A stretch of DNA of 64,000 bases from an uncultured euryarchaeote (GTDB lineage: Archaea; Thermoplasmatota; Poseidoniia; Poseidoniales; Poseidoniaceae), in NCBI GenBank assembly GCA_937899865.1, contig CALBRH010000044.1:1-64000 (forward strand), written 5' to 3'. The position numbers and the translations under genes are program-made. This document shows positions 3 through 31,249 of this stretch, one piece after another; positions within the stretch are counted from its first letter, which is position 1, and each line of letters starts with the position of its first letter. The notes under the pieces were generated by a model. It was not told where the DNA came from. It did not search any database and worked only from the letters and a program-made list of their open reading frames with translations.

Positions 3-2264
3 CTAGGTGCAGAAGTCGATGCATGGGGCTGTTCTGATGAGCAAAATAACGGTGGCTCAGGCAACGGTGGAGATGATGATACTGACGGTGATGGTATTCC
101 CGACTCAAGTGATGCTTGTCCTAATGAGGCATCAAATACCCAAAATGACGCTGATAATGACGGTTGTCCAGACGATGATGGCAGTGGAAACGGCGGTGGC
201 GATGGTGGCGATAGTGATGCAGACGGTGATGGTGTAATCGATGATGATGACACTTGTCCAGATACTCCTTTTGGAGAGTCTGTAGATTTCTTTGGTTGCA
301 GCGATAGCCAGAATGGCGGCGGAGATGGCTCAGGAAATGGCGGCGATAATGGCGATAATGGCGACGGTGACGGTTCTGGCGATGGAGGCTTTGGAGGCAT
401 AGATCTCGGTTGTATCCCAACAGGTACAGATATGAATCAAAAAACCGTGATTAGCTCTGATTTGATATACAATAATGGCATGAATCACTTCAATTTCCCA
501 ATTACTGAGGGCAAAGTATGGAGTGAATCCGCAGTAGGTCAAGGAAAAATAAGTCTCTCAGTAGAGTTGGGTGACTGTGAATTATTTTCTGAGGAATTGG
601 ATGGCTCGGGTGCCCTTCCACTAAACTACCGGCACATAGGTCAAGAATCGTTTACTGTTGACCAAACAACAGTATCTGCCAATGGAATTCAAGTATTTGC
701 TGGTAGAGAAGGTAACAATGATTGGGCTACTCCTGATTTCACTATATTGCCGAGTGTACCAGATAATGTCGCAAGAATGGGCTTACCATTCGCAGCTTGG
801 ATTAATGTTGTTGGATTCAATGAATTTGATTCCACGGTGAATATTTCAGGTTCGGTTAACTCAGCTAATGCAGGAATGCTTAGTGCTAATCAGATGTTGA
901 ATATCGACGAGTTAGGTGCAGTAGTTGTCGATACCATGAACCTTTCAAGTGGTGAATATGAACTTACGATTACAGGAACTAATAATGGCATGGACCGCTC
1001 TGTGACAGTTCCTTTCACAGTTGATAATGACCCTGATTTTGAGATTTTAACATTAGACCCTTGGATTGTTCTACCAGGTGGTGTAGAATGGGTCGTACCG
1101 ACTCCGATTTTCATAGAACCAGTCAATGGTTTTGGTGCTGATGTAACTGTTGGAGTAACAGTGCCAAACGGAGTTACTGCAGAATTGGACTTTGCTAGAG
1201 GTTCTGCTCCATTTATGGCAGTACTAACTTTGACAGTTCCAGCCAATCTTTCAGGCGGAGATTATACTGTAGTTGTAACAGGAACTTCTGGCGATACAGT
1301 TCGTTCAGATGAACTAACATTCAGTATCACTACGCTACCTGAATTTTCACTCGATATAGAAAATCGAGAGCAGTTGATTACCAACGGGGAAATGTCAATT
1401 TCAGGAGTGATAAATGCGCACAATGGTCTTGATTTGTCATTAGGTGGTGTACTTGATGTGATTGTGGAGCCATATAATGAGGCACTACTTGAAAGTGCAG
1501 TAATATCTTGGGGTACAATCGATAGTAATGGAGATTTACCATTTACTGTTACATTCTCAGTCGATGATAATACTCCAAGAAATGAATACACAGTCCAATT
1601 AAATGTTGTCAGTCTTGACGGTGGAATCGCTCACGCAGCATCAGTTGCTTTCGTTACCGAGTCCTCTACTCTTGATGGTACTGCAGAGGCAGCCAGTCAA
1701 TCTTCAGTAGCTACAGGAGATACAGCTCAGCATGATGGAACTGACACTTCAGCACAGAACATACCAGATGGCGAGGGTGATGAAGTGACGGACAGTAATG
1801 ATGGAGATAGTTCGGATTCAGATTCCAAATCATCTAACACTGGACTGATTGTCGGTGGAACAATTGGAGTGCTGCTAATTGCCGCGGTAGTTGGAGTTGT
1901 TGTTCTACGAGGTCGAGGAAGTAATCCAAATGGCAAAGATTTCTCGCAGCAAGCATGGGGTAGTCAAGCCGCAATGATGCCTAATCAAACAGGATATCAA
2001 CAACCTTCAGTTCCAGCAATGCAGCAACAATACGCTCAGCCACAACAAATGATTCAACAACCGGCGCAACCTGTACAACCTGTTGTTCAACAACCGCCCG
2101 CACCACAACCTGCAACACCAATCCAGCCAACTACTGTTGCTGATTACACAGGATTACCACCGGGTGGGCATTACGATCAATCAACAGGTCAAACCATCTA
2201 CGTCCAAGCAGATGGCATTAGATGGCAAATGAATGCAGATGGTAGTTTCAATCGATTGAATTGA
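3..2264 (+). CDS. Membrane-anchored surface protein, 5'-truncated: Gly/Asp-rich TSP3-like repeats, Ig-like beta domains, single C-terminal TM, Pro/Gln-rich cytoplasmic tail
   Basis: The frame of ORF 432..2264 is open back to the window edge (LGAEVDAWGC...DTDGDGIPDSSDACP...DADGDGVIDDDDTCP). TM GLIVGGTIGVLLIAAVVGVVVL is followed by a QQP-rich tail. Confidence 0.85.
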   Translation, partial: LGAEVDAWGCSDEQNNGGSGNGGDDDTDGDGIPDSSDACPNEASNTQNDADNDGCPDDDGSGNGGGDGGDSDADGDGVIDDDDTCPDTPFGESVDFFGCSDSQNGGGDGSGNGGDNGDNGDGDGSGDGGFGGIDLGCIPTGTDMNQKTVISSDLIYNNGMNHFNFPITEGKVWSESAVGQGKISLSVELGDCELFSEELDGSGALPLNYRHIGQESFTVDQTTVSANGIQVFAGREGNNDWATPDFTILPSVPDNVARMGLPFAAWINVVGFNEFDSTVNISGSVNSANAGMLSANQMLNIDELGAVVVDTMNLSSGEYELTITGTNNGMDRSVTVPFTVDNDPDFEILTLDPWIVLPGGVEWVVPTPIFIEPVNGFGADVTVGVTVPNGVTAELDFARGSAPFMAVLTLTVPANLSGGDYTVVVTGTSGDTVRSDELTFSITTLPEFSLDIENREQLITNGEMSISGVINAHNGLDLSLGGVLDVIVEPYNEALLESAVISWGTIDSNGDLPFTVTFSVDDNTPRNEYTVQLNVVSLDGGIAHAASVAFVTESSTLDGTAEAASQSSVATGDTAQHDGTDTSAQNIPDGEGDEVTDSNDGDSSDSDSKSSNTGLIVGGTIGVLLIAAVVGVVVLRGRGSNPNGKDFSQQAWGSQAAMMPNQTGYQQPSVPAMQQQYAQPQQMIQQPAQPVQPVVQQPPAPQPATPIQPTTVADYTGLPPGGHYDQSTGQTIYVQADGIRWQMNADGSFNRLN

Positions 2265-22868: not shown

Positions 22869-24830
22869 GTGATATTTTTGGTAGAATTGCCACAAGGCGT
22901 AGTAATTGAAGTACGACGCGGTGGACATGATGCCTTAGCAAAATTGTCAGGCGATATGACTCGTCTAGGCATTTCAGGATATATCAGAATAGAACGACGA
23001 CCAAAGGAACTAATTCCAAGGGTAAGTCAAGTAGTAATCCATGATAGTCAACCTAAATTAGCAATTCATGAATCTGATGTAGTAATCGGTGGACTTGAGG
23101 CTTTATTGGAGATAGAGCGAGATTCTACTGCCCTTGATGCATTGATTTCATTGGTAGAACTCCAAGACGATGATCTCATTCGCATAATCAACCTTTATCC
23201 AGACTTTACACTTACAACAGAGGCTCAGAAATCAGAGCAAAACAAAGATGATTGGTGGAATTATGTTCAATTAAGTTCCAGTAGTTGGAGGAGAGAAGCG
23301 CGTTTACCCGAGCAAGAAGTAATAGTTGAAGCACCCGAATATATTCGCCAATTAACCAAAGCTAAATTACAGAAATTTGATTTGGGCGAAAAGCATCTAA
23401 ATTATGGAGATACATTGCTAAATGATGGTGAAGATGCAGAGAAAGTTCTCAATTTAGCCGGAATTTTAGCATCTCATGGAAGGCCATTATTGGTATTTTC
23501 ACGTCATGATGTGAGAGGCTTATCAGTTAGTTATGATATCCCAATTGCTTCATGTTTGAAAATGACTTCAACTATTTCGGAAAATGCAGTTTTACCTAAT
23601 TCAGATGATATTCAAGACAAAATTAGTAATTTTTTATGGGCGAACAAGCAAGCAGTAGTAGTTTTTTCTGACCTGGAATATCTTTTATCAATCAACGATT
23701 TTAGTTCTGTAATCAATATGTTTAGAAGCATAATTGACCAAGTTCGCGTAGGCGACCATTTGCTACTTGTGCATTGTAATTTAGAGGTAATGAATGATAG
23801 ACAAAGACATATGTTTGTTAGAGAATTCGAGACAATAAGTACTGCGTATCTTGAAAATTTAATTTTAGATGGAGAGTCATTGTTAGACCATCCAATTTGT
23901 ATAGAGTTATCAGAAGAAGAATTGTCTTGGATTGAGCAACAAATAAAATTTTCAAATAACGATCAAGTTGATGGTACAGATTATGAAGTAATATCAGGGG
24001 GCGCCAGTAGTATTGCTGATGAAGATATTTCGGAAGCAAAAGATAAGTTGAATCAATTGGTTGATGAGTGGCAGGCTCCAGCAATTGACTCGCCACAACC
24101 TATTCAATCCCAAACTAGCGATTCAAAAAGCAATGAATTGTTGACAAATATTGTCGAAAAAGCATTTTCTGCGGCAATTGAGGTAGTCGAAGAAGAGGTT
24201 CAAACAAGTGATGAACTTATTGTTCAGTCTGTCGAACAGACCAAACTGGAAAAGCCGGTAAAGAAAGTTGTTCAAAAGGTTAAATCTCCAAGAATTGCCT
24301 TGCGAGTAAAACGTGCTAAGAGGCCTAAAGCAACTAAATCAAATGCATTTACCGCTTCTGAAGCTACGGCTGCGGCAATAAATAGAAAAGTCGAATTGCC
24401 AGATATTAATCATGTCACAAAAATCAAATCTCATCGTCAAGCAATCGATACAGATCTAAGCCAAAGGTCAGTGAAGATGGATGATGCTCTAAAAAATATG
24501 CTAACTAGTAGCCGTCGCAAAAAGTCTAGAGAAATTTCTCAAGCACTGAATCAAAATGCGCAAAAAGCTGCTAATCAAATGCCTACGATTAAGTCGAAAA
24601 ATAATCTACAACTCTCACCTAAGGTTTCCTCTAAATCTGTGGTACATTCCTCAAGTGATATTGCTTCAAGTGACACTTCGAAACGTCGCTCAAGGGAATC
24701 TGCTTCAAGAACTCAAAATAAGGTTGACATTGATAAAAATTATCAAAAGTGGTCGACACAGTATCTAGGTAATAAGAAATTGGATGAAGATATTTCGGCA
24801 AGCCAATTTATTGTGGAGGAAGAACAATGA
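22869..24830 (+). CDS. DUF835-domain protein (inactivated KaiC/RecA-like) with DUF2226-like N-terminus and basic disordered C-terminus
   Basis: LLVFSRH, VVVFSDLEYLLSINDF.SV..MF..I.DQV......LLV (DUF835 pattern); N-terminal GYIRIE...AL..IE; Lys/Ser-rich tail. Confidence 0.65.
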   Translation: MIFLVELPQGVVIEVRRGGHDALAKLSGDMTRLGISGYIRIERRPKELIPRVSQVVIHDSQPKLAIHESDVVIGGLEALLEIERDSTALDALISLVELQDDDLIRIINLYPDFTLTTEAQKSEQNKDDWWNYVQLSSSSWRREARLPEQEVIVEAPEYIRQLTKAKLQKFDLGEKHLNYGDTLLNDGEDAEKVLNLAGILASHGRPLLVFSRHDVRGLSVSYDIPIASCLKMTSTISENAVLPNSDDIQDKISNFLWANKQAVVVFSDLEYLLSINDFSSVINMFRSIIDQVRVGDHLLLVHCNLEVMNDRQRHMFVREFETISTAYLENLILDGESLLDHPICIELSEEELSWIEQQIKFSNNDQVDGTDYEVISGGASSIADEDISEAKDKLNQLVDEWQAPAIDSPQPIQSQTSDSKSNELLTNIVEKAFSAAIEVVEEEVQTSDELIVQSVEQTKLEKPVKKVVQKVKSPRIALRVKRAKRPKATKSNAFTASEATAAAINRKVELPDINHVTKIKSHRQAIDTDLSQRSVKMDDALKNMLTSSRRKKSREISQALNQNAQKAANQMPTIKSKNNLQLSPKVSSKSVVHSSSDIASSDTSKRRSRESASRTQNKVDIDKNYQKWSTQYLGNKKLDEDISASQFIVEEEQ

Positions 24831-26842
24831 ATCCACGTAGAAATCGACTTTTAAGCGCGATAAAAAGCGCTCAAAACCATGTTCAATCTTCCAACATTTC
24901 GCAATTGGATGATGATGTAGATTCCAATAAAAGTAGTAAAATCCCTAAATCAAAACTTGCTCGTTTGTCTGGGAAATCGGTTATGCCACAAAAAAGGAAA
25001 TCATTACTGTCACGTGTTGGAGTAAACAATAGGCCAACATTTGATTTAATTGCAGATGGTGTTTTAGGCGCTAATTCAGATGATTACCAGCCAAAAATCA
25101 AATTAAACAAGGGTAATGATGACATTTCAAGTTTGGTCGCAGAGCGAATCAAGAACCTTCGTGAACGAACCCTAAGTAAAATTTCTAGTGACGCTCATTT
25201 TGCTGAAAGTTCATTTTTTGGCTTCGAAACAGATGGCACCCCAATATGGAGTAGTGTGGTTAGAGGTGCAAGAGATATTGACTCCAAAATTCATCACCAA
25301 AATGATGATTCCTCGACAATAATACATCATCATTCAACCCATTTGCCAGTAATGATTGATTGGCCTAAAGAACTACAATTTTCATCTCACAATACTTTCA
25401 AAAATTGGTCTACAGTTTCAGAAAATAAACGTGCTACTCAACTTGCTGAACAAGTAGTTGATTTTACACATCAATCATTGAATCCTCTGATAATTATTGG
25501 CGAATCGGGAACTGGTAAATCACATCTCTTGAATGCAATTGGTCAAGCAGTAATGGTTCGAAATGACAAGAGCATATTTTTTATTCGTGGAGATGAATTA
25601 CCTCAAGTATTGTCTCAACATAATAGTTGGACAGATGTTTTTTCGAACGCATCAATGTTGTTGATAGATGATATAGATGCATCATTAAACGATGACAAAA
25701 TTAGCAATTCTCTAGGCAATATGCTTGATACTGCATTAAACATGAATGTTCATGTCGTGGTATCTTCAAATAGCTTGCCTGATGAGTGGCCAGCATCTAA
25801 CCTATGGGATTTGTTAAGAACAGGTGTTAAGACAATTCTAAATCGTGTTGGTGCAGGAAGTCTAATGCTATATGCGCGTCATTTAGCAATGCAAAAGAAT
25901 CTCATCTTGACTGACGAGCAATTAGCATTGATAGTAACCGATGGAGAGGTTGGTTGGAGAAGTACCAAGAATGGTCTTGATAAAGTGGAATCAGCAGCAA
26001 ATAATGGAATTAAATTAATTGATTCTGTTGATATATACAAGGTCATGAATGATATTCAAACAGATGAAGAAGAAAGTACAACTGAGATGCAAAGTGAAAG
26101 TGTTGAAGATATTGCAACTCGATTGATAAATTCAGTAGTTGATGTTGTCTATAGCGACCAACAATTAGGAGGTATAGAACTCAATACTGAACTTCCTGAG
26201 TTGTCTGAAGATTACCAACCACCTGAATTTGACATAGATTCATTTAATTCTTCAGAGAAGGATTTTGTTCAAAATCATATCAATTCAACTTTGCAAGATT
26301 TGACTCCCGAAGCACCTTCTGTAATTGATGTAGATGATCGTGATAAACACCTTGTGGCAAAAATGACTCGGATTATTGAGCGTGACCATTCAATTGCTGC
26401 AGATATTCTGACTGATTTGGATATGGGGATTGATAGTAAGTTTGCAAATTCAGATGATATGATTACGGCAGAAACAGATCAGTTGATGAACTTGAAATCT
26501 AAATTACTGAATCTTGCAGAAAGGACTTCAGATGCTTCAATAGAAGGCTTGATTGGAATTGCCGATGAATTAAGAGCATTGGAGCATGAATTGGTAGCAA
26601 TTGATTCTGAGCGGGATGAATTGCCCGAGTTTGTTGAAGATGAAATTGAAGATGGATTAGAAAGTTATATTCCACAAAACGAATGGAATATTGATGGTTC
26701 ACAAGTGTCGGTAAATGAATTAATAGATGATGAATCAATGATTACCCCGATTGAAGGTGTTTTAGAACCTCATCCGGAAGGTGTCTTGCAAACCTCAACC
26801 ATTACTCCAGTTGAAAATGTTCTAAGTGGGGAAGAAGAATGA
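24827..26842 (+). CDS. DnaA/Hda-like AAA+ ATPase-domain protein with basic N-terminal and acidic C-terminal extensions
   Basis: NTFKNW...NPLIIIGESGTGKSHLLNAIG...LLIDDID...VVVSSN..P, collinear with DnaA domain III. No DnaA domain IV recognisable. Confidence 0.8.
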   Translation: MNPRRNRLLSAIKSAQNHVQSSNISQLDDDVDSNKSSKIPKSKLARLSGKSVMPQKRKSLLSRVGVNNRPTFDLIADGVLGANSDDYQPKIKLNKGNDDISSLVAERIKNLRERTLSKISSDAHFAESSFFGFETDGTPIWSSVVRGARDIDSKIHHQNDDSSTIIHHHSTHLPVMIDWPKELQFSSHNTFKNWSTVSENKRATQLAEQVVDFTHQSLNPLIIIGESGTGKSHLLNAIGQAVMVRNDKSIFFIRGDELPQVLSQHNSWTDVFSNASMLLIDDIDASLNDDKISNSLGNMLDTALNMNVHVVVSSNSLPDEWPASNLWDLLRTGVKTILNRVGAGSLMLYARHLAMQKNLILTDEQLALIVTDGEVGWRSTKNGLDKVESAANNGIKLIDSVDIYKVMNDIQTDEEESTTEMQSESVEDIATRLINSVVDVVYSDQQLGGIELNTELPELSEDYQPPEFDIDSFNSSEKDFVQNHINSTLQDLTPEAPSVIDVDDRDKHLVAKMTRIIERDHSIAADILTDLDMGIDSKFANSDDMITAETDQLMNLKSKLLNLAERTSDASIEGLIGIADELRALEHELVAIDSERDELPEFVEDEIEDGLESYIPQNEWNIDGSQVSVNELIDDESMITPIEGVLEPHPEGVLQTSTITPVENVLSGEEE

Positions 26843-27294
26843 GACATCCATGGTGGATGAGTGGCGTCAAATTTGCTTGTCAAACCAATTGTGGCAAATG
26901 CTGTGATGAGCCTGGAGGAATTGTATATTTGTCTACTCACGATGCCAAAAGAATTTCATCAAGTATGGATTTGACTGTCGAAGATTGGCTTGAAAGAGAT
27001 TGTCAACGCACTTTGGATGGCAGATATATTTTGAAAAGCCGAGAATCTGATGGAATATGCATATATTTGAATGATGAAAAGACGTGTAATATTTATCACA
27101 ACCGTCCCCAACAATGTGCTGCATATCCATGGTGGGGCGAGAATCTTGCTACTGAACGCTCTTGGCAGCAAACAAAACAGGAATGCCCAGGATTAACTGC
27201 GGAAGACGCTATAATTATCGATGGCAATACGATAAAAATTCATGTTCTTGCTGACAGACAGTCAACAAAAGGATTTAGAAAGTGGCCAAACTAA
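26839..27294 (+). CDS. YkgJ-family CxxxCxxCC Fe-S/Zn cluster protein
   Basis: FACQTNCGKCC...C.YL....CNIYHNRPQQCAAYPWW...CPG. Confidence 0.9.
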   Translation: MRHPWWMSGVKFACQTNCGKCCDEPGGIVYLSTHDAKRISSSMDLTVEDWLERDCQRTLDGRYILKSRESDGICIYLNDEKTCNIYHNRPQQCAAYPWWGENLATERSWQQTKQECPGLTAEDAIIIDGNTIKIHVLADRQSTKGFRKWPN

Positions 27295-28543: not shown

Positions 28544-29692
28544 TTACATTACAGGTCTTTGAGTCTTTCCTGAACCTCTATGTCCGATTAATCTAACCGC
28601 TTGCCATGGAGGCGAATTTTCTGAGTTAAATTCTGTTTTGGCACTATCATTTTTCCAATTCCATTTGTCTTGCCACATTTTTGTGAGTTCTAATTTTCGT
28701 TGTTTATCACACTCAGACCACTTAGGAACTTCTTTTTCTAAATCGCTTAAAATTTCTTTATGACTCTCAAATGATGCATTGTTCAATTTTTCTAATTGAA
28801 TTTGATCCAATGGTTGTGTAGCAGGAAATCTCCATCTTGGTTTACCATCGTTATACCAAGTAAAATTCGGATCTAAATTATCAGTTAGCCCGGTTATTCC
28901 TGAACTTAGCAAACGGAATTCATAATTCTCTTTGGCAGGCCAAACATAAACTGGCATTCCAGTACGACATTTTTGAAAATAGTTCAAGCGTCTACCACTT
29001 AGCCCTACACTTTTACCAATTAGTAGACGATTATAGAATGGTTGAAAATATTCGATTGCACAAGGAACCATAGATGCGCCTCTTGTTTTATGTTTGTTAA
29101 TCAGTTTTCCAAATGGTGTGACAAGGTATTGTGGGTAAGCCATCATTCGTTTGAAGCGCCTTGAACCAATTCTTGGAACAACGGGAAGTAATTCAGCCCA
29201 ATTGTATTGACAATTTGATATTTTTACTGACTTATGCATTTTGTTATGAAATGCATAAAACACAACATTTGATTTAGGTATTTCAAACTCATCAATTAAC
29301 TTAGATGCTGAAGAAATCATTTCAGACAAAGTTTGAGTTAATTTAGCACCATCAAAATAGCCCCCGCCTTTGGGGGATTTGGGATGCGGTCGCTTTAGTT
29401 CCAAGCAAACCATTTTGCCTTCGTCATGCCAATTTTTCAGAATATCCTTATGTTCCAACATTTGACGAAATGAACAAAACCCAAAATCATGTAACTCATC
29501 TAGTTCCCATGATTCAACATACGGATTGCGATTGTCTAGTAATTGCTTGTTTACTGAAACTTTGGCATCATGATGAATAATCAATTCATTATCTGCAGTA
29601 AATCGCAAATCCAATTCTATTCCATCAGAATTAGATATGCCGTGGGCTAAACTTATCAAGGAATTTTCTGGTGGTTGCTGCCAGTCTGCCAC
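28544..29692 (-). CDS. Glycerophosphodiester phosphodiesterase (GDPD) family, circularly permuted
   Basis: PENS...DGIELDLRFTADNELIIHHD, LELKRP, VYVWP, GITGLTDN in canonical order; LIGHRG lies at the extreme C-terminus. Confidence 0.85.
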   Translation of the reverse strand: MADWQQPPENSLISLAHGISNSDGIELDLRFTADNELIIHHDAKVSVNKQLLDNRNPYVESWELDELHDFGFCSFRQMLEHKDILKNWHDEGKMVCLELKRPHPKSPKGGGYFDGAKLTQTLSEMISSASKLIDEFEIPKSNVVFYAFHNKMHKSVKISNCQYNWAELLPVVPRIGSRRFKRMMAYPQYLVTPFGKLINKHKTRGASMVPCAIEYFQPFYNRLLIGKSVGLSGRRLNYFQKCRTGMPVYVWPAKENYEFRLLSSGITGLTDNLDPNFTWYNDGKPRWRFPATQPLDQIQLEKLNNASFESHKEILSDLEKEVPKWSECDKQRKLELTKMWQDKWNWKNDSAKTEFNSENSPPWQAVRLIGHRGSGKTQRPVM

Positions 29693-29815
29693 AATTGTCG
29701 GTAGAGTAAATCATTGAAAACATGATGTGTCGCTTGATTGAAAATTCTTAGTAAAACGATTATTATTTGCTTATGTGGTGAAAAAGGATATATTAGCAAA
29801 GGTATCGAGCGGGTT

Positions 29816-31249
29816 ATGAGTCCATACACAATCATGATGATACTGGTTGTGTTATTTACTCCAGTTGTATGCTGGCTTTTTTCACTTTCACAAAAAGAAC
29901 ACAGGGTTCCATTGTCACAATGGGCTAAGGAATTTCACGAAAAGAGATATTATCTCCATGCAATGGGTTATTTGATTATTATTAAGTGGAAGCAAATTAC
30001 TGACTTACTTAATGAACCAATTAAATCAGAAGTTGGTCATTGGACTGATTTAATTTATGCTATTGAAGGAGAATTTACCAAACACATTCAAGACTTCTTT
30101 CTAAATGATACCTTGACTGCTGTACTTAATTTCCATTATTTGTTCATTTACTTGTTTCTAATATATGTTACAACAGTATATTTTGCCTATACTGGTGATA
30201 GAGATATGACTGATAAAGTAGCATTAAATTACTTACTAATTTATGCTTTAGCAGTTCCATACTATCTATTCTTTAATGTTGAAGTAACGTCTTCGTGGAT
30301 ACCTGGAATGGAGGCACTATTGTATCATGATGGCGCATATACAGTGTTCTATGCAACACATGATCCACTTGATAATGCTGTGCCTTCATTACATGTTGCA
30401 ATTCCATTTGGAATATTAATGTTGAATTACCTACATGTCAAAGAAAATGGTGGCAAGATGAAAGATTGGCGTCATTATCATTATTTCATGTTCGTTTTAA
30501 TTAATACAATATTATTCATGTTTTCAATTTTGTACCTTGGTATACACTGGTTTGTTGACATACCTTTAGGTTTGATAATTGGTGGTTTTGGAGCTTTATT
30601 TATTCACCATCTACAGCCTAGATTGCGAAATGATCATGGTTCATTTTTCAAAGGACTTGACAAATTTAAGATTAGAAAGCATGCCATTGTTGAGGGAATA
30701 ATTGCCCTTGTAATGTTCACGCTTATTCTTATGGCAGTAAATGTCCAAGTTGAAAATTCAGATGATAGAGTATCTTTTAGATTAGGTCCTGAGGATTCAA
30801 CCTATGAAATAATTCAAGAATTAAAGTATGGTGAGACAGTTGACTCAACCATAAAGAATTTGGATTCTAATTTAGTGCTTGAGATAGTTTACATTCCGGT
30901 TGAAGAAAGTGCTAAAACTATGGAAAACGGCTCAATTGATTGGTCTTATATGGTAAGTGTTGGAGACCATTATGTTATACAACCGGGCGAACAAATAGAG
31001 ATTACAACTGATAGTTATTTGATATACAATTTGATAGTTATGCATAATCCAAGTACTAATTCTGGTGATGTGCTTGAGGTAAGTATCGTTAATGATTATC
31101 ATGATGACAAAATGTTTAGAGCGATTATTTTATCAATTCCATCTTTATGGATGACTGCATTTGTATTGTATAGATTACAGCGATTGAGAGCAAATAAGCT
31201 CTCAATTCTTGATTCCTCACCATCACATTTGTGGTTCGAAGAAGAATAG
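29816..31249 (+). CDS. Aur1/Ipt1-like PAP2 (PAP2_3) membrane phosphotransferase with extra C-terminal soluble domain and TM
   Basis: NAVPSLHVA and SILYLGIHWFVDIPLG motifs, multiple TMs. Start placed at ATG 29816. Confidence 0.8.
   Translation: MSPYTIMMILVVLFTPVVCWLFSLSQKEHRVPLSQWAKEFHEKRYYLHAMGYLIIIKWKQITDLLNEPIKSEVGHWTDLIYAIEGEFTKHIQDFFLNDTLTAVLNFHYLFIYLFLIYVTTVYFAYTGDRDMTDKVALNYLLIYALAVPYYLFFNVEVTSSWIPGMEALLYHDGAYTVFYATHDPLDNAVPSLHVAIPFGILMLNYLHVKENGGKMKDWRHYHYFMFVLINTILFMFSILYLGIHWFVDIPLGLIIGGFGALFIHHLQPRLRNDHGSFFKGLDKFKIRKHAIVEGIIALVMFTLILMAVNVQVENSDDRVSFRLGPEDSTYEIIQELKYGETVDSTIKNLDSNLVLEIVYIPVEESAKTMENGSIDWSYMVSVGDHYVIQPGEQIEITTDSYLIYNLIVMHNPSTNSGDVLEVSIVNDYHDDKMFRAIILSIPSLWMTAFVLYRLQRLRANKLSILDSSPSHLWFEEE

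Follow-up and report, generated by a model that had tools for sequence, protein, structure and literature searches.

A probable natural circular permutant of the GDPD TIM barrel in the archaeal order Poseidoniales

The window, a stretch of 64,000 nucleotides, carries on its minus strand an open reading frame (ORF) which the ORF list and its translation give as a protein of 382 aa with a GTG start (Table 1). The coding sequence was 99-100% covered by at least 120 homologues of 370-400 aa, and the N-termini of the homologues lined up with the GTG start in a 28-sequence alignment. The gene ends 0 nt from the stop of a convergent citrate synthase gene. The protein begins at PPENS, with the sequence MADWQQPPENSL followed by DGIELDLRF and LIIHHD, continues with LELK, VVFYAF, VYVWP, and GLTD in the canonical order of GDPDs, and terminates in VRLIGHRGSGKTQRPVM, i.e., AVRLIGHRGSGKTQRPVM. 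The initial annotation had described this start at PPENS, this order of strands, and an end at VRLIGHRG; the description was accurate in every detail checked. The protein is without a signal peptide and was, therefore, read as cytoplasmic.

A miscalled start, a frameshift, or a misjoin could have concealed a normal HRG segment at the N-terminus. The initial annotation had held that no such segment lies upstream, and this was borne out, as an in-frame TGA six codons before the GTG makes an N-terminal extension impossible, and HRG was not found in frame in the translated sequence upstream of the start. Additionally, no more than 45 nt separate the GTG from the divergent ORF, whose listed start is a TTG at 29738.

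Table 1. Features of the permuted GDPD gene and protein, with positions in the window.
Feature	Residues	Position	Strand	Basis or detail
CDS of the permuted GDPD		28544..29692	-	382 aa; GTG start 29690-29692; TAA stop 28544-28546
In-frame TGA		29711..29713	-	six codons 5' of the GTG; sequence and translation
Predicted GDPD barrel, canonical beta1-alpha1 loop/alpha1 to beta8	1-290	28823..29692	-	AF2 secondary structure; VIA-align Z 15-18
Predicted barrel strands within residues 1-290	24-31, 94-99, 143-147, 164-167, 209-212, 248-253, 267-270		-	AF2
GDPD insertion with a strand, inside residues 1-290	37-39 (strand)		-	AF2
PEN motif at the N-terminus	P8-E9-N10	29663..29671	-	Pfam alignment begins at profile position 9
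GIELDLRF, canonical beta2, with E26 and D28 as presumed metal ligands	24-31	29600..29623	-	
HHD, presumed second catalytic His of the GDPD mechanism	H40-H41-D42	29567..29575	-	conservation
ELK, presumed third metal ligand and phosphate-binding Lys	E98-L99-K100	29393..29401	-	conservation
Helical linker between beta8/alpha8 and the relocated beta1	291-365	28598..28822	-	AF2
Linker helices and disordered stretch	297-304, 311-321, 330-344; disordered 349-354		-	AF2; pLDDT below 50 in 349-354
VRLIGHRG, putative relocated beta1 with predicted catalytic H371 and R372	366-373	28574..28597	-	invariance; DSSP strand 368-371, block pLDDT 95
SGKTQRPVM, C-terminal tail, cut end of the former HRG-PEN loop	374-382	28547..28573	-	

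The protein was assigned to the GDPD family by profile. Residues 8-89 matched positions 9-70 of the 244 positions of the Pfam GDPD profile PF03009 (E 5.6e-9), with a score of 36.9 bits, above the curated cut-off of 23.6, and the genome search agreed. In canonical hits from other Thermoplasmatota, which we translated, position 1 of PF03009 is the H of HRG, and a hydrophobic strand such as VLVIGHRGASGYEPENTL precedes this motif. The match in the permuted GDPD, therefore, begins exactly at PEN, after the missing strand. A sequence search of the PDB with the protein resulted in GDPDs only, aligned from PEN onwards, and residues 24-31 were matched to the ELD motif of 7e0v and 2pz0. When C-terminal fragments of 31-83 aa were submitted alone, they gave no Pfam GDPD match and only chance hits (E 0.03-0.17), such fragments being too short to inform. 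The NCBIfam search provided weak partial hits only, among them lysophosphatidylglycerol phospholipase D with 19.6 bits against a cut-off of 450, and hence no clue to the substrate.

All residues of the GDPD catalytic set (H371, R372, E26, D28, E98, H41, and K100) are present and invariant or nearly so. The canonical linear topology, in which beta1 with HRG comes first and beta8 last, was not found: HRG occupies residues 371-373 of 382, and nothing precedes PEN. For this reason, the protein was filed as a permuted GDPD variant, not as a canonical member.

A word-indexed search resulted in 176 relatives, nearly all of 370-400 aa, and those with a source name were labelled Poseidoniales, Poseidonia, or Thermoplasmatota. 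We refer to these proteins as the long family. Across 28 homologues with 42-77% identity, I369, G370, H371, R372, G373, G375, K376, R379, and P380 are invariant, as are E9, N10, E26, D28, R30, H40, H41, D42, E98, and K100; the invariance of the C-terminal motif indicates that the C-terminal HRG is not due to chance. When 1.84 billion representatives were searched exhaustively with phmmer, only 155 hits were returned, with about 20 full-length clusters down to 28-30% identity. R367, H371, R372, G373, and G375 remained invariant down to 28% identity, and so did H41, whereas E98 and K100 were invariant at every depth, from the 42-77% set down to 28% and also in the alignment with the short Asgard family described below. 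In all full-length relatives (134 of 134), a distance of 4-17 residues separates HRG from the C-terminus, and none of the 134 has an HRG upstream of PEN. The segment absent from one terminus is thus found, conserved, at the other in 134 of 134 proteins, as in a circular permutant, and all of these relatives share the permutation.

Within the core clade the tail GKTxRP does not vary, whereas the most distant members differ there. As a separate observation, the Walker A pattern GxxxxGK[ST] can be read in GHRGSGKT (residues 370-377, 28559-28582 on the minus strand), for which a chance Pfam ORC-CDC6-like match with E 0.17 was obtained. We regard the Walker A reading as a coincidence, given that neither K nor T is conserved among distant members and that only five more residues follow.

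The distribution of the protein was examined in the order and in the phylum. With the permuted-GDPD profile, full-length matches were recovered from 198 of 201 sampled Poseidoniales genomes, with matches in each of the 24 genera and in three families. In the source genome (2.01 Mb, 91% complete), the permuted GDPD was the sole PF03009 hit, and no second match was found. A phylum-wide scan placed the start of the PF03009 hits within Poseidoniales at profile position 7-9, whereas in the other Thermoplasmatota orders and classes sampled the hits started at position 1 and nearly all extended to 240 or beyond. The exceptions outside Poseidoniales were a few hits spanning 1-97 to 1-132 and one short fragment (182-242). 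Judged by this profile coverage, the GDPDs elsewhere in the phylum are canonical.

Two further observations were made in the scan. One order-level genome contained an extra PF03009 hit (G011:C16:51868-52191; positions 3-114) in a 195-aa open frame; this genome may have a canonical or incomplete GDPD in addition to its permuted copy. All sampled genomes of one genus (g3) and several genomes of g21 and g23 gave two matches to the permuted-GDPD profile, with best E-values of about 1e-110 to 1e-117 in g3; these double matches suggest either a lineage-specific duplication or split alignments.

Since the gene is identical in kind across the order, the permutation is a fixed character of Poseidoniales (Marine Group II, MGII) and not an accident of assembly. 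A misjoin or a hidden HRG segment, raised above, would have to recur in 198 independent genomes of identical full-length architecture, several of them with closed or nearly closed contigs, and in the 134 of 134 database proteins that share it. No support for an annotation or assembly artefact was found in these data, and we consider it excluded, including the misassembly that the initial annotation had named as a possible objection.

A second, shorter family with the same permutation was recognized among the weak hits. P0253 (273 aa) and P0268 (280 aa) start with PN[ST]I close to the N-terminus and end in IIAHRGTG or IAIHRGCG. Seven clusters of relatives of P0268 were named Heimdallarchaeota or Kariarchaeaceae, and eight species-representative Heimdall-/Kariarchaeota genomes encode the short family full length (L048-L055), each with a C-terminal I(I/A)(A/I)HRG and with no HRG upstream. 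The short family (P0268, P0253, and P0311-P0316; L048-L055) thus shows an N-terminal PN[ST] and a C-terminal IIAHRGxG. It differs from the long family in its length of 270-286 aa, in the absence of the long helical linker, and in belonging to another phylum than the Poseidoniales family. The profile comparison of the two families by hhalign (E 3e-22 to 6e-22, about 170-190 columns aligned, and at E 3e-22 the first ~190) points clearly to their homology. In both, N, D, ExD, R, D, HD, ExK, and the C-terminal HRGxG are invariant, and in the joint alignment the linker of the long family is an insertion relative to the short family. Two details of the short Asgard proteins were also recorded: they carry Pro where the long family and the canonical GDPDs have the Glu of PEN, and L049 and L053 possess a helical-looking extension of about 20 aa after HRG.

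The structure of the permuted GDPD was modelled with AF2, run as a monomer on the 28-sequence alignment. The resulting model (pLDDT 90.6, pTM 0.90) is a confident GDPD barrel with seven strands in the N-terminal part and one confident strand at the C-terminus (368-371, pLDDT 95). Foldseek matched it to many GDPDs with probability 1.00 and E about 1e-7. In VIA-align, the comparison with solved GDPDs gave Z 15-18 and an rmsd of 2.5-3.1 A over 204-236 residues, against Z 8-9 for unrelated barrels. The protein is accordingly predicted by the model to adopt the GDPD-type TIM-barrel fold. Residues 5 to about 290 of the model align to solved GDPDs from just past beta1 of the solved chain, starting at residue 22 of 2pz0_B, 11 of 1o1z, and 17 of 2otd. 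Only two alignments with generic barrels, both weak, reached residue 382 (8e5h_A, Z 9.1; 3na8_A, Z 8.7).

The short-family model was of similar quality (pLDDT 90.4, pTM 0.90), again with 7+1 strands, the C-terminal strand at 267-270, and 16 residues separating beta8 from it; the C-terminal strands of the two models have pLDDT 93-95. Its comparison with GDPDs gave Z 17-20.6, here too with alignments that begin past beta1 of the solved chains. Additionally, the HisA/PriA barrels 5ac7_A, 5l9f_B, 4gj1, and 2y85_A aligned with Z 9.6-9.8 over 189-193 residues, and these chains align over their whole length to residues 17-19 to 280 of the short family, with the register rotated by one strand. In this rotated register, the C-terminal strand of the short family is the eighth barrel strand. 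Through their strand count, DSSP, and, for the short family, the rotated register, the models lend indirect support to a C-terminal strand that closes the barrel between GDPD beta8 and beta2, that is, at the beta1 position.

The AF2 monomer model does not tell docking in cis from docking in trans. The C-terminal HRG strand might complete the barrel of a neighbouring subunit by a domain swap, which would make the protein an obligate dimer or oligomer. The linker of about 75 residues and its disordered stretch at 349-354 would leave room for such an exchange, which a model that covers the monomer only does not address. However, a closed barrel is predicted for the short Asgard family as well, in which beta8 and the C-terminal strand are just 16 residues apart. 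This speaks for docking in cis, and the monomer reached a pTM of 0.90. We, therefore, regard the swap as improbable and closure of the barrel within one chain as the better reading.

The order of the parts was also reversed in silico. For the canonical reference, we prepared an alignment and an HMM of 26 Thermoplasmatota GDPDs, including the ten residues before HRG, and the C-terminal block of the permuted proteins (from eight residues before HRG to the end) was placed in front. Twenty controls with shuffled block columns accompanied the re-permutation of the long family. In native order, the long family scored 119.2 in hhalign over canonical columns 17-154; after re-permutation, the score was 134.2 over columns 5-154, and the 20 controls gave 119.6 +/- 1.2 with a maximum of 124.4, so the gain lies about 12 sd above the shuffled-column controls. 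The short family rose from 94.8 (canonical columns 19-190) in native order to 103.1 (columns 8-190) when re-permuted. In the re-permuted long family, avRlIGHRGSG fell on liIaHRGas and PENTL on PENTL, with an 11-column insertion between HRG and PEN that consists of the tail from K376 and the first N-terminal residues. Re-permutation restored collinearity with the canonical GDPD profile and scored better than the native order.

Single re-permuted sequences confronted with the 26-GDPD HMM in HMMER gained 0.6 bits on average and 5.4 at most, against -0.8 for shuffled controls. The HRG-PEN loop in the re-permuted order has about 15 residues, versus 5-6 in canonical enzymes, and the HMMER gain is small because this long insertion costs what the motif gains. 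We judged the profile-profile comparison to be the better test of re-permutation than single-sequence HMMER.

From these results, we consider it probable that the gene encodes a GDPD (PLC-like phosphodiesterase) TIM barrel that has undergone a natural circular permutation. The initial annotation had proposed such a permutation with the cut between HRG and PEN, and the proposal is supported by the conservation, the AF2 model, and the re-permutation score. The chain would begin in the loop after canonical beta1, at PEN, and continue through beta2 to beta8; it would then cross the helical linker of roughly 75 residues and close with VRLIGHRG, the beta1 of every other GDPD, which would complete the barrel between beta8 and beta2. 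With VRLIGHRG in the place of beta1, H371 and R372 would stand beside E26, D28, E98, H41, and K100, and with the catalytic residues together the enzyme should work as an ordinary metal-dependent GDPD. In this mechanism, the pair H41 and H371 would provide general base and acid catalysis, the phosphate would be held by R372 and K100, and E26, D28, and E98 would be the ligands of a divalent metal, with glycerol phosphate and an alcohol as the products. We take these roles of the seven residues from general knowledge of GDPDs, presuming analogy with the solved enzymes. We read the protein as most likely a metal-dependent phosphodiesterase that is active in the cytoplasm. The gene architecture, its conservation, the GDPD fold of the model, and the regained collinearity are observations, whereas the precise way in which the C-terminal strand docks, the activity of the enzyme, and its substrate are matters of inference.

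The circular permutant has to be weighed against a relic. In that case, a second GDPD domain would once have followed in tandem and been lost, the C-terminal HRGSG would be what is left of its beginning, without any part in the structure, and the protein would have a barrel of seven strands with impaired catalysis or would serve in binding. Tandem GDPD-GDPD proteins do exist (P0254, 542 aa; P0260, 561 aa), and the gene ends right at the stop of the citrate synthase gene. A relic would decay, however, and here R367, H371, R372, G373, and G375 hold down to 28% identity, while the C-terminal motif is invariant across two families at 18-22% identity even as the linker before it varies freely or is absent. 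Moreover, no N-terminal His-Arg pair has taken over as a replacement, and AF2 docks the C-terminal strand with pLDDT 93-95. A relic is, therefore, very hard to reconcile with the data, and we give it little credence.

The same tandem proteins make a route by duplication and truncation plausible for the permutant, as they have the duplicated architecture needed as a precursor. They show the canonical order and are not specifically related to the permuted GDPD (E about 5e-5, N-terminal part only), and no specific duplicated intermediate was found.

The permuted GDPD was compared with known systems. The canonical GDPDs (PF03009) include 2pz0 (T. tengcongensis GDPD), 1o1z (T. maritima TM1621), 3l12, 2otd (UgpQ-type), and the archaeal 4oec and 7e0v. 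The permuted protein resembles them in the modelled TIM-barrel fold, in the motifs HRG, PEN, ExD, HD, and ExK, and in the GDPD insertion after the ExD strand. It differs from them in having the putative beta1 with HRG after beta8 instead of before PEN, in the predicted position of its termini on the catalytic face, and in the added helical linker of about 75 residues. Its sequence is also very divergent from canonical GDPDs, with 155 phmmer relatives and Pfam coverage limited to positions 9-70. Naturally permuted (beta/alpha)8 barrels are represented by the GH70 glucansucrases with respect to GH13 and by transaldolase with respect to the class I aldolases. What these cases share with the permuted GDPD is a TIM barrel that is circularly permuted and keeps its catalytic machinery; GH70 and transaldolase belong to unrelated superfamilies, whereas the permuted GDPD is cut in a catalytic-face loop between two active-site motifs.

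The neighbourhood of the gene was compared among loci. The convergent citrate synthase, a housekeeping gene, lies beside the permuted GDPD in 10 of 10 loci. The divergent neighbour (29738-31249, plus strand) encodes a membrane protein of 503 aa that belongs to the PAP2 superfamily, with a Pfam PAP2 match at residues 205-295 (E 2.6e-8). As its homologues can be aligned only from residue 27 onwards, translation may in fact begin further downstream. The permuted GDPD is paired with the PAP2 protein in 4 of 4 loci, all of the window's family; in the other families, a different membrane protein is found at the PAP2 position, and ORFs of about 590-660 aa with the motif YDWAKSAFETS were recorded there for one other family. 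A general GDPD-PAP2 functional module was rejected, as the PAP2 pairing is limited to the window's family. Before the citrate synthase gene, the region 22869-27294 (plus strand) encodes a DUF835 protein (653 aa), a DnaA/AAA-type ATPase (671 aa), and a CxxCxxCC protein (151 aa), and this block is syntenic in the four loci of the window's family and largely so in two others.

For the lipid context, the source genome was searched for enzymes of the glycerol phosphate backbone. GGGP synthase (PcrB) and a GpsA-type NAD-dependent G3P dehydrogenase were found (C60:45195-45683; C63:8824-9294), whereas PF13685 (G1P dehydrogenase type) and PlsY gave no hit in this 91% complete genome. The presence of GGGP synthase and GpsA together with the missing PF13685 agrees with the published lipid puzzle of MGII archaea, which lack G1P dehydrogenase and whose membrane lipids are still unidentified (PMC6962369).

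The position of the cut may have consequences for the active site. Because the beta1-alpha1 loop in which the chain is opened belongs to the catalytic face, the active site would be flanked by residues 1-7 and by the tail (374-382). With the termini on this face and GKTxRP invariant in the core clade, the tail may, speculatively, contribute to substrate binding. The permutation could be functional and not neutral, in that the opened HRG-PEN loop would put free termini and the basic GKTxRP tail at the active-site rim and provide a novel specificity; we hold this to be rather unlikely. A speculative candidate for such a specificity is the head-group turnover of MGII membrane lipids, possibly G3P-based or chimeric. 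If this were true, the presence of the permuted enzyme in planktonic Heimdall-/Kariarchaeota would point to a lipid trait shared between marine archaea or to gene transfer between them. An effect of the permutation on substrate access, or on the G1P versus G3P stereochemistry of the substrate, as the initial annotation had suggested, is likewise a speculation.

To our knowledge, the GDPDs are a textbook TIM-barrel family with dozens of solved structures, all of one strand order. Full-text searches of the literature returned no description of a permuted GDPD. New here are the contrast with the canonical GDPDs elsewhere in the phylum and the compact permuted family of Heimdall-/Kariarchaeota, as well as the controlled re-permutation test and the rotated-register barrel alignments. 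The probable permutant is the sole GDPD fixed across a globally abundant archaeal order, with a second form in Asgard archaea. It would offer a clean new case for the evolution of TIM barrels by duplication and truncation and for the engineering of barrel permutations. As the Pfam profile covers about a quarter of the domain, many permuted GDPDs are labelled hypothetical. For MGII, the protein marks a putative enzyme of glycerophospholipid head-group metabolism.
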